From contig CAWFQK010000005.1 of NCBI GenBank assembly GCA_963817955.1, forward strand, positions 64,001-128,000: DNA of 64,000 bases, given 5' to 3'. The DNA comes from an uncultured Gemmatimonadaceae bacterium. GTDB lineage: Bacteria; Gemmatimonadota; Gemmatimonadetes; Gemmatimonadales; Gemmatimonadaceae. Under the pieces are notes generated by a model. The model saw only the letters and a list, made by a program, of their open reading frames with translations. It was not told where the DNA came from and did not search any database. The translations under genes and the position numbers were made by a program. Below are positions 21,502 through 61,636 of this stretch, one piece after another (the stretch's first letter is position 1; every line of letters starts with the position of its first letter).

Positions 21502-21559
21502 CACCAAACCGAAACTGCGTGACGGCGATTGCTCGCCGTCACGCAGTTTCGGTTTGGTG
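21502..21559. terminator. Perfect 27-bp inverted repeat between convergent genes (likely terminator)
   Basis: CACCAAACCGAAACTGCGTGACGGCGA-TTGC-exact reverse complement. Confidence 0.75.
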
Positions 21560-21622
21560 CTACCGACTTGGTGCTACCGACTTGGTGCTACCGACTTGGT
21601 GCTACCGACTTGGTGCTACCGA
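21554..21622. repeat. 14-bp tandem repeat (TTGGTGCTACCGAC), about 5 copies
   Basis: Four exact copies plus a 13-nt partial copy, read directly. Confidence 0.95.
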
Positions 21623-34321: not shown

Positions 34322-36027
34322 GCACCCTCGAGCGCCTCAAGCTGAAGACGATTCGCGGCCGCCTGTGGCTGGGCTTCGGCGTTCTCGTCGCGTTGCTCCT
34401 GGTCGCCGGTATCGTGGCACGTCGATCGTTCGCCGGAATGTCGGCGACGATCACGCAGTCGCTCACCGAGGTCCAGGCCGAAGCGCAGCTTTCCAGTCAG
34501 TTGTCAGCCGACGCAGCAAAGACCATCGAGGCGGGCGCCCGATATCTCGAGACGCGTGACAGCACGGCACAGAACGCCTTTCGTAAATTCGGCTGGGCGG
34601 CGCACGACATACAGCACCAGATGAATGAACGGCCGAACCAATCGGCCGGTGAAGTCGCGATGGTTGCGACGATCGACAACAAGTTGTCGGCGATGGAAGT
34701 GAGCTACGCGCTCGCGCATCGCCTGACTGATCTCGGGCGCATGGATGATGCGCGCAAAGCAGCGGCCCAGGCGCGCGGCTCGATTGACGATCTTCTCGAC
34801 AACATCGAACGGCTCGGCGCCTTGAAGGCGCAGAAGGTGGCGGTGGCCAAGCGGGAGCTCGCAGCGGAGGCCGATCGGCGTTCGAGCTGGCTGCTCCTGC
34901 TCATCGGCGCGGCCCTCGTGTTTGGGATTCTCGTGGTGATGTACACCGTGCGAGGCATTGGAGAGCCGCTCGACGCACTCGTACAGCACGCTCGGCGGCT
35001 GAGCGAGGGCGACCTCACGAGCCGCGCGCAGACCGACATGCCGGGCGAGTTCGCCATTCTCGCTTCGGCCATGAATCAGACTGGGGAATCGCTGTCGCGG
35101 GTTGTCGGGGTCGCGGCCCGCACGGCGGAGGAAGTCTCGAGCTCGGCGCACGACCTGGCATCCGTCTCGGAGCAGATCTCGCTCTCGGCCGGCCAGATGG
35201 CAAGCGCCATGACCGACGTCTCCCATGGCGCCGAAATCCAGGTGCAGCAACTCCGCACGGTAGACGAAACGCTTCAGGTGATTCGTGAAGCCGCCGACGG
35301 CGTGAAGAAGCGTTCAGCAGAGGTCACCGATCTGGCGCGCAGCATCGAAGGCGTTGCCCAGGCGAAACGTCTGGAGATCGATCGGGCACTTGGGATTCTC
35401 GTGGACGTGAAGCACAGCGTCGAGGGTGCGGCAGGGGAGATCCGCGCGCTCAATATCACGGTGACCGACATCAACCGCTTCGTGGTTTCCGTCGGCCAGA
35501 TTGCCGACCAGACGAATCTTCTGGCGCTCAATGCAGCGATCGAGGCGGCGCGCGCCGGCGATGCGGGCCGCGGATTTGCCGTGGTCGCCGACGAAGTGCG
35601 GAAACTGGCCGAGCAATCGCAGAAGGCCGCCGATGACATCGTCCAGATGACGGGCGCCGTCACGTCGCGCGTAACATCGAGCGCGCGCGCCATGGAGACA
35701 AGTGCCGGTCGTGTCGGCGAGATTGAAACGGTCTCGCGCGACATTGACGGTGCGCTCCACACGATTACCGAAGCAGCCAGACGGACCCGCATTGCCGCCG
35801 TCGGCGTGACCAGCGCCGCCGAAGCCAATGCCCACACCGTGATCAGCGTTGCGAGCAGTCTCGAGTCTATCGCCAGGACTGCCGAAAGCCACGCCGCGGC
35901 TGCCCAAGAGGTGAACGCGTCGACGCAGGAACAGTCGGCTGCCTGCGAACAGATGACGTCTGCCAGCAACGTGCTGCTGCACGGGTCGACGCAGCTGAAG
36001 GCGCTTGTCGGCGGCCTGAGGACGTGA
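34318..36027 (+). CDS. Methyl-accepting chemotaxis protein
   Basis: Two TM helices, [24 protein letters not shown]...[20 protein letters not shown] overlap with the binding protein. Confidence 0.95.
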
Positions 36028-36062
36028 GAGCGGCTCGACGTTACTGACCTTGGCGAAGGTCA

Positions 36063-36097
36063 GGGGGATGGGGGATGGGGGATGGGGGACGGGGGAC
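36063..36097. repeat. Heptamer repeat GGGGGA(T/C), 5 copies
   Basis: Read directly. Confidence 0.9.
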
Positions 36098-36130
36098 ACG
36101 CGACAACGGACCCCTGTCATTCTGAGCGAC

Positions 36131-36160
36131 CCTGTTATCCTGAGCGAAGCGAAGGATCTC
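36131..36160 (+). repeat. REP-like element, copy 1
   Basis: CCTGTTATCCTGAGCGAAGCGAAGGATCTC; 29/30 match to the inverted copy at 38146-38175; preceded by a partial duplicate. Confidence 0.85.
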
Positions 36161-36293
36161 TGCGAACGGCGGGCCGACGGGATGGCTGGTCGTGGCCAGG
36201 CAGGCGCAACGCGCCGGACTCAGTCTCAACGGTTCGCGCTGTTCCCGCCGCCAGCGCTGAACATCGGACAAAGCAGTATTTGAGAGGGGAGGA

Positions 36294-36327
36294 ACGCGAA
36301 CGGCCGCCCGAGGGCGGCCGTTCGCGT
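36294..36327 (-). terminator. Hairpin downstream of the minus-strand gene ending at 36361
   Basis: ACGCGAACGGCCGCCC-GA-GGGCGGCCGTTCGCGT. Confidence 0.65.
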
Positions 36328-36360
36328 GTACTGCGGGGTGTGACCTACTGGTGCGGCGTG

Positions 36361-36898
36361 TTACACCGCCGGCAACTGCGAGGCCGGAGGTGGTGGTGCT
36401 GCCGGCGGTGTTGCTGGCGCCGCCGTAGTGCCCTGCGTAGTGCCTTGCGTGGTACTGCCCTGCGTCGTGCCCTGCGTACTGCCCGGCGGCGTGGCATCCG
36501 CTGGTGCCGCGCTCGCGCGAGCGCCGATCTTGATGCCCGGCTTGCGCGCAACGCGCTTCGCCGTGGTCCAGGCCGCCTGCAGGCCGGCATCGGCGCCGAT
36601 CAACGGCAGCAGCAAGCCGTTGAGTACCGTGATGATGGTGCGACCACGCCGCTCCTCGGCCGCCAGCGATGCCGTCGCCCCGCTTCGGACCACGGTTTGC
36701 CCCGATCGCCCATCTATGACGTCCTGCAGCGCCTGCGCGGAGGCCTGCAACCGCGCGAGGAAATCCGCCGGAAGCCCGTTAGCCGTGAACACCGCCACGT
36801 GGCGCGCCGCGGCCTCGCCCATTGCTGCCGCCGCGGCGAGCAGTCGCGTCGTCGATGCGGCGGAGCGCTTCGAGCATACTACCTTCGTGGTATTTCAT
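36361..36898 (-). pseudogene. Helical hypothetical protein gene, apparently disrupted
   Basis: GGAGG-CCAC-ATG at 36898 gives MKYHEGSMLEALRRI... and stops after 39 aa; a protein-like body (TTRLLAAAAAMGEAA...) continues in another frame to TAA 36361. Confidence 0.55.
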
Positions 36899-36984
36899 GT
36901 GGCCTCCCGGCCAACGGGGCGCCGAAAGAGAGCTGCCCCCGACGGGCGCCCGACGCGCCGGGGTCGAAAAACGGGAACATCCGC

Positions 36985-38000
36985 CTCGAGCGGTTGCGGT
37001 GTGGTCTTGGGGAGTTGCGCTGTGGTCTTGAGGAGTTGCGATATCGTCTCGGAGAATTGGGGTGTCGTCTCAGAGAGTTGGGGTGCCGCCTCAGCGAGGT
37101 GAGGTGTCGTCTCGGAGAGTTGGGGGGCCGCCTCAGCGAGGTGGCGTGGCAGCTCGAGGCGTTGGGATCCCGTCTCAAGGCGTTGGGGTGCCCGCTCGAC
37201 GAGTTACGATCCCAGCTCGACGAGTTGGAGTGCTCTCTCGCCGCACTCCGATTGCGTCTCGGCGAGTTCGGATTCCAGCTCGACGCGCCGGGGTGCCGTC
37301 TCGCCGCGTTCCGATTGTGTCTCGACGAGTTGGAGTGCCGTCTCGCCGCGCTCCGATTGTGTCTCGACGAGTTGGAGTGCCGTCTCGCCGCGCTCCGATT
37401 GTGTCTCGACGAGTTGGAGTGCCGTCTCGCCGCGCTCCGATTGTGTCTCGGCGAGTTGGAGTGCCGTCTCGCCGCGCTCCGATTGTGTCTCGGCGAGTTG
37501 GGGTGCCGTCTCTGCACGCAAGAGAGCCGTCTCGCGGCGATGCGATGCGATCTCGACGCGATCGCATCCCTCCTCGGCAAGTTGCAATGCCTGCTCGGCA
37601 CGCGAGGATCCTGGCTCACCGCGCTGGGATCCTTGCTCGCCGCGTTACGATTCCGTCTCGACGCGCAACGATCCCTGCTTGATCCGTTGCGATTCCGTCT
37701 CGACGCGCAACGATCCTTGCTTGATCTGTTGGGATTCCGTCTGGGCAGGCGACGATCCCAGCTTGGCGCGTTGCGATCCTATCTTGGCGCGCGACGATCC
37801 CTGCTTGACGCGTTGCGATGCCATCTCGCCGCGTTAGGATCCCATCTCGACACGATCGAATCCCATCTCGACACGATCGAATCCCATCTCGACACGATCG
37901 AATTCCATCTCACCACGATCGATCCCGTCTCGACCCATTCGCATTCGAAGCGTGTCAGGATCGATCCCGTCTCGACCCATTCGCATTCGATGTGTGGCAC
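36985..38000. repeat. Degenerate 21-nt-period tandem array with near-exact 42-nt and 21-nt sub-arrays
   Basis: 42-mer CTCGACGAGTTGGAGTGCCGTCTCGCCGCGCTCCGATTGTGT at 37321/37363/37405/37447; 21-mer TCCCATCTCGACACGATCGAA x3 at 37840-37902. Confidence 0.92.
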
Positions 38001-38145
38001 GAGCGATCCCGTCTCGCGCCCGCTCGTCCCACATTGATCATAGTCCTATATATTAGTTCCGAAATTGGGGGGTCAGCGCAAGGGCCAATGTGACCGATTG
38101 GCCAAAACCGACATGTTTTGAGCGTTTCGGCGTTAGTAGATAGTA

Positions 38146-38175
38146 GAGATCCTTCGCTTCGCTCAGGATGACAGG
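38146..38175 (-). repeat. REP-like element, copy 2 (inverted)
   Basis: GAGATCCTTCGCTTCGCTCAGGATGACAGG. Confidence 0.85.
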
Positions 38176-38242
38176 CTTGCCGTGTCCCGTGTCTCTCTCC
38201 TCACCAGACCTTCGCGACGCTCGACATTCGGCCCTGGTGCCA

Positions 38243-38283
38243 AGGAAAAGGCCGGAGCGACGCACTCGCTCCGGCCTTTTCCT
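38243..38283. terminator. Intrinsic terminator (potentially bidirectional) after the M28 peptidase
   Basis: AGGAAAAGGCCGGAGCGA-CGCAC-TCGCTCCGGCCTTTTCCT. Confidence 0.8.
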
Positions 38284-38316
38284 CATTCGTGAACGTCTAG
38301 CGTCTCACTACGCCAC

Positions 38317-40107
38317 TTACTGCTGGCACCGCGCCTTCGGATCGCCGGCGGGCTTGTCGACTGCCGGCCGATGATCGAGATCGGCGACATACGTCCCGAG
38401 CTTGAACATGAAGTTGCCGATCTTCGCCATGTGCGGGTAGTCGATGTACTCCGGCTCATCCGTCACCTGGTGATAATCGCCGTGCAGACCGGTCGTGACG
38501 AACACGATCGGAATGCCATAGCGCGCATAATTGAAGTGATCGCTGCGGCAGTAAATGTTGTCCGGATGGCCGTTGGCATCGAACTGATAGTCGAGCTTGA
38601 ACGGCGCCTTTTCCTGGTTGTTGATCTTCTCGAAAATGTCACCGAGCTCCGTCGATACACGGCGTGAGCCGACAAGCTGCAAGTAGGTCGGCCCACCCTC
38701 GAACAGATCTGACGCCGCACCACGACCGACCATGTCCATGTTGAGCTGCGCGACAATCGACTCGCGCGGCACCGGCGGATGATCGGTCACGTACTGCGAG
38801 CCCCATAATCCCTTCTCTTCGGCAACGTGCCAGACGAAGAGTACCGACCGCTTCGTCTTCGGCTTGTCCTTCGCGAACCGCTCGGCGATCTCGAGGAGCG
38901 TCACCGTGCCCGAGCCGTCGTCGTCTGCACCGTTGCTGATCGAATCAATCCGAATACCGCCGTTCACCTTCCGCACGCTGTCGAGATTGATGTGGATCGC
39001 GGCGATCTGTGCGTTCAGCGAATCGAGGTGCGCCTGCTGGGCCGGCGCCGCCGGGCTGCAGTTCGCCTGCTGACGCCCGCCGCAAATCTTGTTCTGCAGA
39101 TTGAAGAGCGCGATGCGCTCGCGAATCGGATACGCCTGCTCGGCGTACAGGTGCAGCGAGTCGTGGTCGACACCGCCCGTTGCGCGGATGCCAATGTGGT
39201 CGTTGTGGGCGCCCATCGCCACCCATTCGTTCTTGAGCTTCGGGTCGCTGCCGATATACCCGGCGATGACGTTGCGCGCTGGCGCATCAGCGTCGATGAA
39301 CTTGATGTTGGCGCTCAGCGTTTTGCCGGCGGTACCGCGGGCCATTCCGGCGAGCGGTGCGCCAAGCAACTGCTCCGCGGCGTGCCGGGTAATCGTCACC
39401 GTCGGCGCCGTCGCGGGCTCTGCCGGGTCGGGCGTCAACTGGACGGCACCCTCCCGCGGATGCAACGCTGTGTTCACGAGCGCCGGCGTGAGTTGATCGA
39501 CAACCGTGATTGTCGCCGCTGGGCCATTCGCCCCAGCACCACGCCCCGGGCCCGCGCCCCCGCGCCCACCGCGCGCTCCACCTCGACCGCCACGCCCCGT
39601 GGCCGCCGGCTGCTCGTACAACACGATCTTGCCGTGCATCTGATCGGGTGTCAGCGCGTTCGTGGTGTCGCCGAGCACGCCACCGAACACGACCGGCGCC
39701 GATGCAAACGCCCCGACATTTCCACGGCCGGCGCTGGCCACGAAGTCCGTTCCCGCGTGCAACGTCACGCCATCAGCCGTGATCGTGGAATTCTGATCGA
39801 GCGACCGGCGAATCACCGGCACCTTCTGGAAATACGTGCCGTTGTCGCCCATTGGCTTGAGGCCAAGAGCCTTCAACTGCGCGGCGATATACGCAGTGGA
39901 CTTGACGTGTCCGCGCGTTCCAGTCTCACGGCCTTCCATGGAATCGGCCGCGTAGATGTACAGTCGGGTCTTCAAATCGGCCGCGGATATGGCTGCAGCC
40001 GTCGGTTGCGGAGTGTGCGTCCGCGGCTGTGACTTCGGATTTTGCGCGGCGGCAAGCGCCGGCAGTCCGAGCACCGCGGCGCCCAGGACATGAGAGAATC
40101 GCTTCAC
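38317..40107 (-). CDS. Secreted M28 family aminopeptidase
   Basis: Signal peptide [56 protein letters not shown]. Confidence 0.92.
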
Positions 40108-50878: not shown

Positions 50879-50911
50879 CAGCCCGAGCGTTTCGCTCGGG
50901 CTGTTGTTTTT
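50879..50911 (+). terminator. Intrinsic terminator
   Basis: CAGCCCGAGCG-TTT-CGCTCGGGCTG followed by TTGTTTTT. Confidence 0.75.
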
Positions 50912-51017
50912 GGGAGACATCGGGCTGTTGTTTTTGGGAGACATGAGACGCGAGGCGCGAGACATGGGACACGAAACGCGAAACGCGAGACACGAGACAC
51001 GGGCCACGAGGCACGGC
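50897..51017. repeat. 24-bp direct duplication followed by degenerate heptamer repeats (GAGACAC-like, about 10)
   Basis: CGGGCTGTTGTTTTTGGGAGACAT x2, then GAGACGC GAGGCGC GAGACAT GGGACAC GAAACGC GAAACGC GAGACAC... Confidence 0.85.
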
Positions 51018-59689: not shown

Positions 59690-61636
59690 GTGTCTGAACA
59701 AGCCAACGACCTCGAGGCTCTCCTCGACTATTTGAAGCGGACGCGTGGGTTCGATTTCACCGGGTACAAGCGCACCAGCCTCGAGCGTCGAATCCTCAAA
59801 CGCATGCAGAGCGTGAGGGTGGCGTCATTCGCCGACTACCTCGATTATCTCGAGGTACACCCCGAAGAGTTCCCCGGGTTGTTCAACACGGTGCTCATCA
59901 ATGTCACCAGCTTCTTTCGCGACCCATCCACCTGGGAGTTCATCGCGGAATCAGTGATCCCCGATCTGCTGGCCCAACGCGCCTCCGGACACCCCCTTCG
60001 GGTGTGGAGCGCGGGATGTGCCTCGGGTGAAGAAGCGTATACCTTGGCGATGTTGTTCGCCGAAGCGCTCGGCGTCGATGCGTTCCAGGAACGGGTGAAG
60101 ATCTACGCCACCGATGTCGACGAAGAAGCACTCGCCAAGGCGCGCCAGGCGGCTTACAGCGAGCAGGAAGTGGCCGACATACCGCCGGCCCTGCTGAAGA
60201 AGTACTTCGAAAAGAGCGGCGGGCTGTACGTGTTCCGGAAGGACCTCAGACGCCATGTGATCTTCGGCCGGCACGACCTCATCCAGGACGCACCGATCTC
60301 GCACGTCGACATGCTCGTGTGTCGGAACACGCTCATGTACTTCAACGCGGAAACGCAGGCGAAGATCATCGCGCGATTCCAGTATGCGCTGGCCGACCAC
60401 GGCGTGCTGGTCCTGGGACGCGCCGAGACGTTGATGACGCACACGAACGCGTTCACGCCGCTCGATCTCAAGCGCCGCGTTTCGAAGAAGCTGCCGGCAA
60501 GCGCATACCGCGGCGATCGTCTGAAGTTCGCTGCGCGGCAGGCACAAGGTGACCAGCCGGAGCCCACCGACCAGGGGCTGCTCCGTGATGCGGCGTTCGA
60601 CGCGAATCAGACCGCGCAACTGGTGGTTCAGGTGAATGGCAGTCTCGCGCTGGCGAACGAGCGCGCCCGCGCGATGTTCGGCATTTCGCCCAGCGACGTC
60701 GCGCGCCCGTTGCAGGACCTCAAGATCTCGTATCGTCCCATTGAGTTGCGATCCATCATCGAACGCGTGTACCTCGAGCGCCGTCCGACGGTGCTGCCCG
60801 ACGTCGAGTGGATGTCGCTCAGCGGCGACAATCGTTGGCTGGAGGTGACCGTGGTGCCGCTGATCGGTCCGCTACGCGGAGTGATCGCCGGTGCAAGTAT
60901 CACGTTTCACGACATCACGGCAGCCAAGCGACTCCAGCGCGATCTCGAGCACACCCATCAGGAGCTCGAGACAGCGTACGAGGAGTTGCAATCGACGAAC
61001 GAGGAACTGGAGACCACGAACGAGGAGCTTCAGTCGACCGTGGAAGAGCTCGAGACGACGAACGAGGAGCTACAGGCGACGAACGAAGAGTTCGGGACAA
61101 TGAATGAGGAGTTGCAGTCGACGAACGAAGAGCTGCAGACGATGAACGACGAGCTCCGTCGACGCGACGAAGAGATCAATCGGGCCAACGCGTTTCTCGA
61201 GAGCATACTCGGCAGCCTGAACGGCGCGGTGATTGTCGTCGATCGCAAACTCAACGTTCTCCTTTGGAATGAAGGGGCGGAGGAGTTGTGGGGACTGCAC
61301 GAGGAAGAGCTGCGCGGCAAGAGTTTCCTCGACCTCGACATCGGCTTGCCGACCGAGCAGCTCGAGCAGCCCCTCCGCGCCTGCTTGAGCGGAGAACAAG
61401 AGCGCGCTTCGCTCACGATCGACGCGATCAATCGACGGGGCCACGACCTTACCTGCCGCGTGTCAGTATCGCCGGCACGCCCCCGCACCGGCGATATCCT
61501 CGGCGCAATTCTCGTCACGGAAGTCGTACTCGCAATCAAGCGAAACGGGCCCGGGAATGGCGACCGCGACGGCGCGAACGGACGCACCCAAACCCCCGCC
61601 AACGCAAAAAAACCGACACTGAACCGCGAGCGCTGA
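59690..61636 (+). CDS. cheR: CheR methyltransferase with PAS / EELQSTN coiled coil / PAS
   Basis: INVTSFFRD, RVWSAGCASGEEAY, IYATD, CRNTLMYF; EELQSTNEELETTNEELQS repeats. Confidence 0.92.
   Translation: MSEQANDLEALLDYLKRTRGFDFTGYKRTSLERRILKRMQSVRVASFADYLDYLEVHPEEFPGLFNTVLINVTSFFRDPSTWEFIAESVIPDLLAQRASGHPLRVWSAGCASGEEAYTLAMLFAEALGVDAFQERVKIYATDVDEEALAKARQAAYSEQEVADIPPALLKKYFEKSGGLYVFRKDLRRHVIFGRHDLIQDAPISHVDMLVCRNTLMYFNAETQAKIIARFQYALADHGVLVLGRAETLMTHTNAFTPLDLKRRVSKKLPASAYRGDRLKFAARQAQGDQPEPTDQGLLRDAAFDANQTAQLVVQVNGSLALANERARAMFGISPSDVARPLQDLKISYRPIELRSIIERVYLERRPTVLPDVEWMSLSGDNRWLEVTVVPLIGPLRGVIAGASITFHDITAAKRLQRDLEHTHQELETAYEELQSTNEELETTNEELQSTVEELETTNEELQATNEEFGTMNEELQSTNEELQTMNDELRRRDEEINRANAFLESILGSLNGAVIVVDRKLNVLLWNEGAEELWGLHEEELRGKSFLDLDIGLPTEQLEQPLRACLSGEQERASLTIDAINRRGHDLTCRVSVSPARPRTGDILGAILVTEVVLAIKRNGPGNGDRDGANGRTQTPANAKKPTLNRER

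Follow-up and report, generated by a model that had tools for sequence, protein, structure and literature searches.

Array structure and the plus-strand reading frame

Does a ~1-kb tandem array that reads as leucine heptads on one strand encode a coiled-coil protein, or does it work as DNA or RNA? The array in question lies in the window, by which we mean the whole 64,000-nt stretch of DNA from an uncultured Gemmatimonadaceae bacterium that was analysed here. A preliminary description had proposed selection for a Cys-rich coiled coil on the plus strand or, alternatively, a DNA- or RNA-level array in the leader of a minus-strand gene. We find that the 1-kb array most likely only resembles a coiled-coil gene and is the non-coding front part of a cassette (Table 1).

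The array comprises 45 in-register units of exactly 21 nt (36985-37929) with zero indels, followed by a looser 42-nt tail that ends at ~38016. The plus frame is open to a TGA at 38035-38037 and, upstream, to 36082. It places Leu at heptad position a in 45/45 units (CTC 37, CTT 7, CTG 1), carries L 28, I 5, Q 3, R 3, V 2, F 2, P 1 and M 1 at position d, and contains 23 Cys in 350 codons. As described earlier, the in-register minus frame is broken by TAA where the plus strand has TTA (three cases), and Tandem Repeats Finder recovered both the 42-nt sub-block (37279-37512, 96% matches) and 21-nt sub-blocks. Strand-biased C-to-T mutation was rejected as the source of the TTA/TAA pattern, the rates being similar (7.6 vs 6.2 per 1000). 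A stop-free plus frame arose in 6% of column shuffles among the 45 units; the open frame is only borderline unusual and is weak evidence alone. Two unit positions were nearly invariant, wobble position 9 (G in 43/45 units) and position 16 (T in 42/45 units, across eight different residues). CRISPR- and TIGR-like guide arrays have constant repeats with unrelated spacers; we rejected a guide array here, where the variable positions repeat those of neighbouring units in degenerate form and drift along the array.

Table 1. Features of the window copy of the cassette, with the coding control repeat
Feature	Position	Strand	Basis or remark
REP-like dispersed palindrome, abutting the cassette 5' end	38147..38172	minus	host repeat
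Conserved 5' block of the cassette	38045..38140	minus	21 BLAST hits in the genome; alignment of 18 copies
TTGCGC hexamer, 20 nt upstream of the AT-rich box	38076-38081	minus	part of the conserved 5' block
AT-rich promoter-like box	38045-38055	minus	part of the conserved 5' block
21-nt-phased degenerate repeat array	36985..38016	none assigned	45 units plus 42-nt tail; non-coding by the tests run
Predicted H-type pseudoknot, between array and ribosome-binding site	36917..36963	minus	covariation, descriptor, covariance model
Pseudoknot stem 1	about 36963-36954 with 36944-36936	minus	
Pseudoknot stem 2	36951-36945 with 36923-36917	minus	
Shine-Dalgarno-like GGGAGG, before ATG 36898	36903..36908	minus	sequence
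Broken copy of the cassette gene	36361..36898	minus	272-nt deletion shifts the frame
Terminal GC-rich hairpin; copy-to-copy similarity usually stops just after it	36295..36325	minus	
Coding 21/42-nt heptad repeat, EELQSTN-type	60962-61171	plus	inside ORF 59804-61633; positive control

Coding tests of the heptad frame

We compared substitutions among the array units with those in a coding heptad repeat of the same window (Table 1), which lies in an ORF that is presumably CheR-like. Codon position 2 was the most variable in the array (0.47; 29% of single changes synonymous), the opposite of a coding heptad, and the least variable in the control (0.18; 52% synonymous). Likewise, dN/dS in the plus heptad frame, measured along spanning-tree edges in two subfamilies of paralogous copies, was 1.34 (8 copies) and 1.27 (10 copies), and it was 1.44 on private changes in the alignment of 18 copies, while pairs of the cassette gene gave N4/S15 and N8/S24, indicating purifying selection on intact genes. 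The codon CGA made up 20/43 Arg codons in the array frame vs 3/43 and 3/36 in the flanking genes. No in-frame start with a Shine-Dalgarno sequence was common to the 8 closest copies; one of the eight has such a start, inside the antisense of its own broken gene. At least 6/8 of these copies, one of them with an intact gene, contain in-frame stops or 1-nt shifts, and both 20-nt units and in-frame stops are present in close copies. With dN/dS above 1, a most variable second codon position and no shared start, the proposed selection for a coiled coil was not supported, and it was the alternative, an array acting as DNA or RNA in the leader of the minus-strand gene, that gained support and that generalises across the order.

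Over a wider set, the best a/d heptad frame was antisense in 30 and sense in 26 of 56 arrays, arrays showed no codon periodicity (0.266 vs 0.274) whereas genes did (0.313 vs 0.270), and no open frame was favoured among 71 arrays. No database protein matched the heptad frame at E 1e-10 among 8000 candidates. An in-frame fusion of array to gene was also rejected, as only 8/71 arrays are open to the ATG and the gene frame is not stop-poor. Other observations lean towards coding. Stop-making differences in the plus heptad frame were scarce on spanning-tree edges (4 vs 14.4 expected; P 0.001; 18 copies), and private changes, an underpowered comparison, gave 1 vs 2.2 expected (P 0.36). In the related subfamily B, too, this antisense frame is mostly low in stops (0-2 vs 6-15 in the other antisense frames), and the plus translation exceeds the cut-off of the Pfam coiled-coil family DUF7310 (50.1 vs 40 bits).

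The cassette and its copies

On the minus strand, the cassette runs from an AT-rich promoter-like box through the array, a pseudoknot-type motif, a ribosome-binding site and a gene to a terminal hairpin. We infer that the AT-rich box is a promoter. Of 27 matches to its pattern, 19 have a 21-nt array downstream; a generic sigma-70 scan makes no call at the box. A terminator scan, which requires a T-run, makes no call at the terminal hairpin. The 13-nt core of the adjoining REP-like palindrome occurs 143 times in the genome.

The minus-strand gene had been described as running from 36898 to 36361. The ATG start at 36898 stands, but the ORF is not intact: 43 nt in, a deletion of 272 nt, lying between a pair of 5-nt direct repeats, puts it out of frame. 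Intact paralogs, one of them at G000:C4:244451-245083 on the minus strand, encode a 211-aa basic helical core with a low-complexity tail. The window cassette is probably dead, and any protein acting on it would have to come in trans from these paralogs. Two other copies in the genome have the same deletion junction, and since three copies have one deletion in common, copying continued after the gene broke.

The genome analysed (4.53 Mb, 9 contigs; present in four DNA runs of one soil study at a share of 0.06-0.28) contains matches to the cassette gene at 23 loci, 11 full length and 12 broken, and several copies persist as arrays without a gene. The top period upstream was 21 nt in 19/21 other own-genome loci tested. 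Among 21 copies, 5' ends are ragged and the flanks form a mosaic of shared segments, in which inspection by eye showed neither terminal inverted repeats nor a target-site duplication. Most indels between copies are whole units. Retro-copying of the cassette was considered and rejected, the only reverse-transcriptase match in the genome (G000:C4:731887-733161) sitting in an unrelated context, next to a transposase and a helicase, that looks like a defence island.

The window copy is flanked by a chemoreceptor gene and an M28 peptidase gene, which are neighbours in 10/11 relatives examined, separated by 30-291 nt in 7 and by about 700-800 nt in 3. The array was absent from this site in 11/11 relatives. 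Since the flanking genes are adjacent without the array in relatives, the window copy is a lineage-specific insertion. In two relatives (L108 and L109) the site holds a different ~700-nt insert with a small ORF, which we take to be a four-helix-bundle (IVP/Avd-type) gene, and the intergenic site may be an insertion hot spot.

Several further arrangements were seen in this genome. At G000:C2:888482-888805, part of an N-6 DNA methylase gene continues in frame into codons 1-108 of the cassette gene, and at G000:C1:440955-442472 two family genes stand in tandem, with array and pseudoknot on the first only. Elsewhere in the window, a perfect 14-nt tandem repeat (4.9 copies, 21554-21622) directly follows a strong hairpin, an exact 24-nt duplication is followed by a degenerate 7-nt array (50896-51015), and a second 7-nt array lies after the chemoreceptor gene (36063-36096). 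Heptamer tracts are common in the genome and lie beside 6/21 cassette copies vs 10% of random windows.

Conservation of the 21-nt period

We looked upstream of homologues of the cassette gene, as had been suggested. Counting this genome, the gene is present in 18/41 close genomes and 37/151 genomes across the phylum, and its presence within the genus is patchy (13/24 genomes). The protein family has 4,625 representatives at 50% identity that match at E 0.001; word-index protein searches returned 6 and 3 relatives only, and a metagenome scan gave 5 loci, 4 with an identical upstream region. No match was found among 72,556 plasmid and 50,697 phage records.

Periods of 15-33 were ranked upstream of the gene, with 150 random windows as control (z never >5.7). 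A period of 21 ranked first in 84/94 relative loci, namely in 37/45, 25/26 and 22/23 scorable loci of three sets, after three loci had been dropped from the 45-locus set and 19/42 from the 23-locus set for short flanks or partial matches. In the first of these, the genus- and order-level set, 29 loci exceed the maximum of the random windows and the other 16/45 are at or under it; in 8/45 another period ranks above 21. The AT-rich locus L079 (G116:C1), with a divergent family member beside an AAA/DUF4143 gene, has a weak 21-nt period (z 6.8).

The unit consensus sequences are unrelated between subfamilies, and units differ by 40% from their own consensus in a pooled set of 56 arrays (from which 14 near-duplicates and weak-signal arrays had been removed). 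The pooled match rate reached 0.47 at a lag of 21 nt and 0.41 at one of 126 nt, vs 0.26-0.28 at neighbouring lags. Over 1154 units of these arrays we counted 59 phase slips, a rarity that is partly built in by detecting arrays through phase coherence; 43 slips shift the phase by 1 nt and 4 by a multiple of 3, and gains and losses are balanced (24 to 19). Arrays range from 10 to 52 units of 21 nt among loci. They fold weakly and equally on both strands, show no 10/11-nt half-period (p 0.2), a slight excess of 7-nt multiples (p 0.04) and no dyad symmetry in their unit profiles, and have C > G on the sense strand in 44/56 cases. The conserved feature is spacing, or register, and neither sequence nor reading frame.

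Upstream of the array, a sigma-70 region 4 of ECF type was found in 11/39 divergent ORFs scanned (picked from 88 candidates); in this genome one cassette copy still has a neighbour of this kind, which the window copy lacks. No Rep initiator or partition ATPase/GTPase was found among the same 39 neighbours. At ten loci (L045, L046, L047, L051, L052, L060, L061, L063, L064 and L066) there are two AT-rich boxes in back-to-back orientation, 150-430 nt apart, one of which faces away from the array; doubled boxes also occur at loci without a remaining sigma gene.

A pseudoknot-type motif before the start codon

Between the array and the ribosome-binding site, loci picked by eye show a hairpin whose loop could pair with a stretch lying 12-15 nt beyond it, as in an H-type pseudoknot. 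In 22 hand-picked loci, 82% of cells were paired vs 69.5% after shuffling (0/500), 12/16 pairs change on both sides, and one pair is GC in 12, AU in 9 and has 1 exception. Slid controls gave 29-48%, a lenient comparison since the structure was derived from the same sequences. G-U pairs fall on the sense strand. The motif is clear only in the by-eye subsets (22 and 16 loci), and the entire region ahead of the start codon gives weak folding z-scores (mean -1.1, 77 loci).

A genome-wide scan with a descriptor shaped on such cassette copies gave 25 matches. A ribosome-binding site and start follow 14 of them, and 12 of these 14, including the window match at 36951, also have an array upstream. A covariance model, whose training set contained a near-identical paralog, matched the window at 36908-36970 (E 8e-4). 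Its strongest genus matches precede family genes already found, and inspection of 15 weaker matches (E >0.001) added a single new locus that has both array and gene; the others look like chance. A second family of the order has another double-pairing motif in this position, 94% paired and with weaker covariation. Eight loci of this second family (L150, L151, L154, L163, L165, L167, L170 and L174) carry a different dispersed palindrome between leader and ribosome-binding site. Rfam gave no match at gathering score for window 36000-38400 or for 14 loci. Two other roles were considered and rejected, a frameshift signal, as no consistent slippery site was seen upstream by eye, and termination at stem 1, as a U-tract is present in some loci and missing from others.

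The cassette protein

The model of an intact paralog is all-helical (pLDDT 97.5), with short helices and two long ones (33-88 and 137-191), and the protein is predicted to be rod-shaped. The core is basic in 128/129 sequences (median net charge +9, pI 10.4), with R35, R155, R177, K205, R206, Q52 and W201 conserved. None of these 129 family members has a Pfam match, and a PDB sequence search gave no match (best E 0.18). Foldseek with the model reached a best E of 0.07, structure comparison returned generic helical bundles only (best Z 9.5, rmsd 3.8, 142-178 aligned), and fold searches found no known DNA-binding motif in the predicted fold. An internal duplication was rejected as not significant (hhalign probability 4%).

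The nearest Atlas clusters are unnamed Gemmatimonadota, and a divergent member matches, in one row, an unnamed Bacteroidota cluster of 460 at 0.94. DUF6261 (PF19775) resembles the cassette protein in size and is suggested by a language-model match, at a score of 0.88, to a cluster with this family on 32% of its members. PF19775 was not over cut-off in any of the 129 family members or in this genome; the 61 class genomes gave no match either, and neither did the controls there. Kinship with DUF6261 is a weak lead.

What might read the register

As the register is kept between a promoter-like box and the gene for a basic helical protein, the simplest reader is that protein. Our tentative reading, held with somewhat less than even confidence, is that the array is a two-helical-turn docking track for the cassette's own basic protein. 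The cassette region would be transcribed from the AT-rich box; the protein, whose basic charge suggests nucleic-acid binding, would dock in a row along a single face of the array DNA and, once bound, limit expression of its own gene, and the pseudoknot may add translational control. We favour DNA over RNA as the target: 21 bp make two turns of B-DNA, 1-nt gains and losses balance, and the array has no strand-specific fold. By arithmetic, the long helices of 55-56 residues would span ~80 Å vs 71 Å for 21 bp. The lack of a half-period, of dyad symmetry and of a known DNA-binding motif counts against docking on DNA, as do the slight excess of 7-nt multiples, the persistence of gene-less arrays in this genome and the genus- and order-level loci in which 21 is not the top period or stays within the control range, and the place of the array downstream of the AT-rich box fits an RNA role equally well.

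The main rival, which we consider unlikely, is that the array works as RNA, a long leader coated by the basic protein in steps of 21 (or 3 x 7) nt from the pseudoknot onwards, for translational autoregulation or as a ribonucleoprotein filament. The array does lie between the AT-rich box and the start codon, next to a pseudoknot that covaries and that has a double-pairing counterpart at the same place in a second lineage, and the excess of C over G on the sense strand and the slight 7-nt sub-period fit as well. However, single-stranded RNA could absorb 1-nt slips, the array folds on neither strand in particular, and the match of 21 to two DNA turns would be a coincidence. The gene 32 messenger of phage T4 offers a precedent for nucleation at a pseudoknot with short repeats, although there (PMC535899) the repeats lie 3' of the knot, and here the array is 5'.

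Somewhat less probable still is that the cassette is selfish or hitch-hiking and the array a by-product or handle of its copying, with no reader protein, slippage and conversion in whole units keeping the phase. The many loci in one genome, 12/23 of them broken, the deletion carried by three copies and so copied after the gene broke, the mosaic flanks, ragged 5' ends, empty site in relatives, patchy presence and predominance of whole-unit indels all suit this explanation. Slippage, however, keeps any period and leaves a near-universal 21 in unrelated arrays unexplained, intact genes are under purifying selection, inverted ends and target duplications were not seen by eye, and the only reverse transcriptase lies in an unrelated island. 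It is improbable that a Leu/Cys heptad coiled coil is, or was until recently, encoded in the plus frame, antisense to the cassette. Leu at every a position with mostly hydrophobic d positions, the scarcity of stop-making differences, the stop-poor frame of subfamily B and the DUF7310 match argue for it, as do in-frame N-terminal extensions, sense-strand and heptad-like by eye, annotated on 5/8 long database relatives. Set against these are dN/dS values of 1.3-1.4, the stops and shifts in close copies, the absence of a shared start, codons (CGA) that are rare in the flanking genes, the near-invariant positions 9 and 16, a nearly even split of heptad frames between strands and no database protein matching the frame.

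The docking-track reading can be extended to a widespread self-assembling nucleoprotein system, a joint reading that we regard as rather doubtful. A basic helical rod protein would polymerise in 21-nt steps on its own array, as DNA or leader RNA; the pseudoknot would nucleate or gate polymerisation; a divergent ECF-type sigma factor would switch on many loci; the whole cassette would be copied to new intergenic sites; and register, not sequence, would be the conserved code. What we observe is that a large protein family without Pfam or PDB match keeps one repeat period while the repeat sequence turns over completely, an unusual constraint. If the protein reads spacing, this would be a novel means of assembling a nucleoprotein track and might serve as a programmable scaffold. 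For annotators, such arrays carry a warning, as they give convincing but probably false coiled-coil ORFs.

Comparison with known systems

Plasmid iterons have a period of about 21-22 bp, and the cassette resembles iterons and centromeres in having helically phased direct repeats beside the gene of the protein. It differs in that no motor ATPase, Rep protein or origin was seen in it, in being chromosomal and multi-copy with a unit sequence that is not common to subfamilies, and in containing an RNA pseudoknot motif and a predicted fold that is neither ribbon-helix-helix nor winged-helix. In centromere/operator arrays such as tubC/TubR (PMC6009700) and parC/ParR, phased direct repeats likewise lie by a promoter, upstream of a basic protein gene, and autoregulation of the cassette would, by analogy, follow the same logic.

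The T4 gene 32 operator (PMC535899) is similar in having, some tens of bases ahead of the start codon, a pseudoknot beside a repeat tract, and in that the encoded protein is the cooperative binder, a role that is only proposed for the cassette protein. Its repeats are 4-5-nt AU elements, whereas the cassette has 10-52 units of 21 nt, and the proteins are unrelated. The BrickBuilt minisatellite-MITE of Porphyromonas gingivalis (PMC4596501) is also intergenic, with ~20 copies per genome and 23-nt tandem units without spacers, and its leader and tail parts have promoter activity. BrickBuilt has inverted-repeat ends and no gene, while the cassette has a gene and a pseudoknot, no inverted ends that we could see, and a period conserved across unrelated sequences. 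Like a MITE or insertion sequence, the cassette has dispersed copies and empty sites, but their inverted repeats and target-site duplications were not seen by eye on its flanks. We found no published description of it in the main texts of the open-access literature, and this cassette of Gemmatimonadales bacteria is apparently undescribed. Its novelty rests not on mechanism but on a combination of parts that fails a defining test of each known class considered here.
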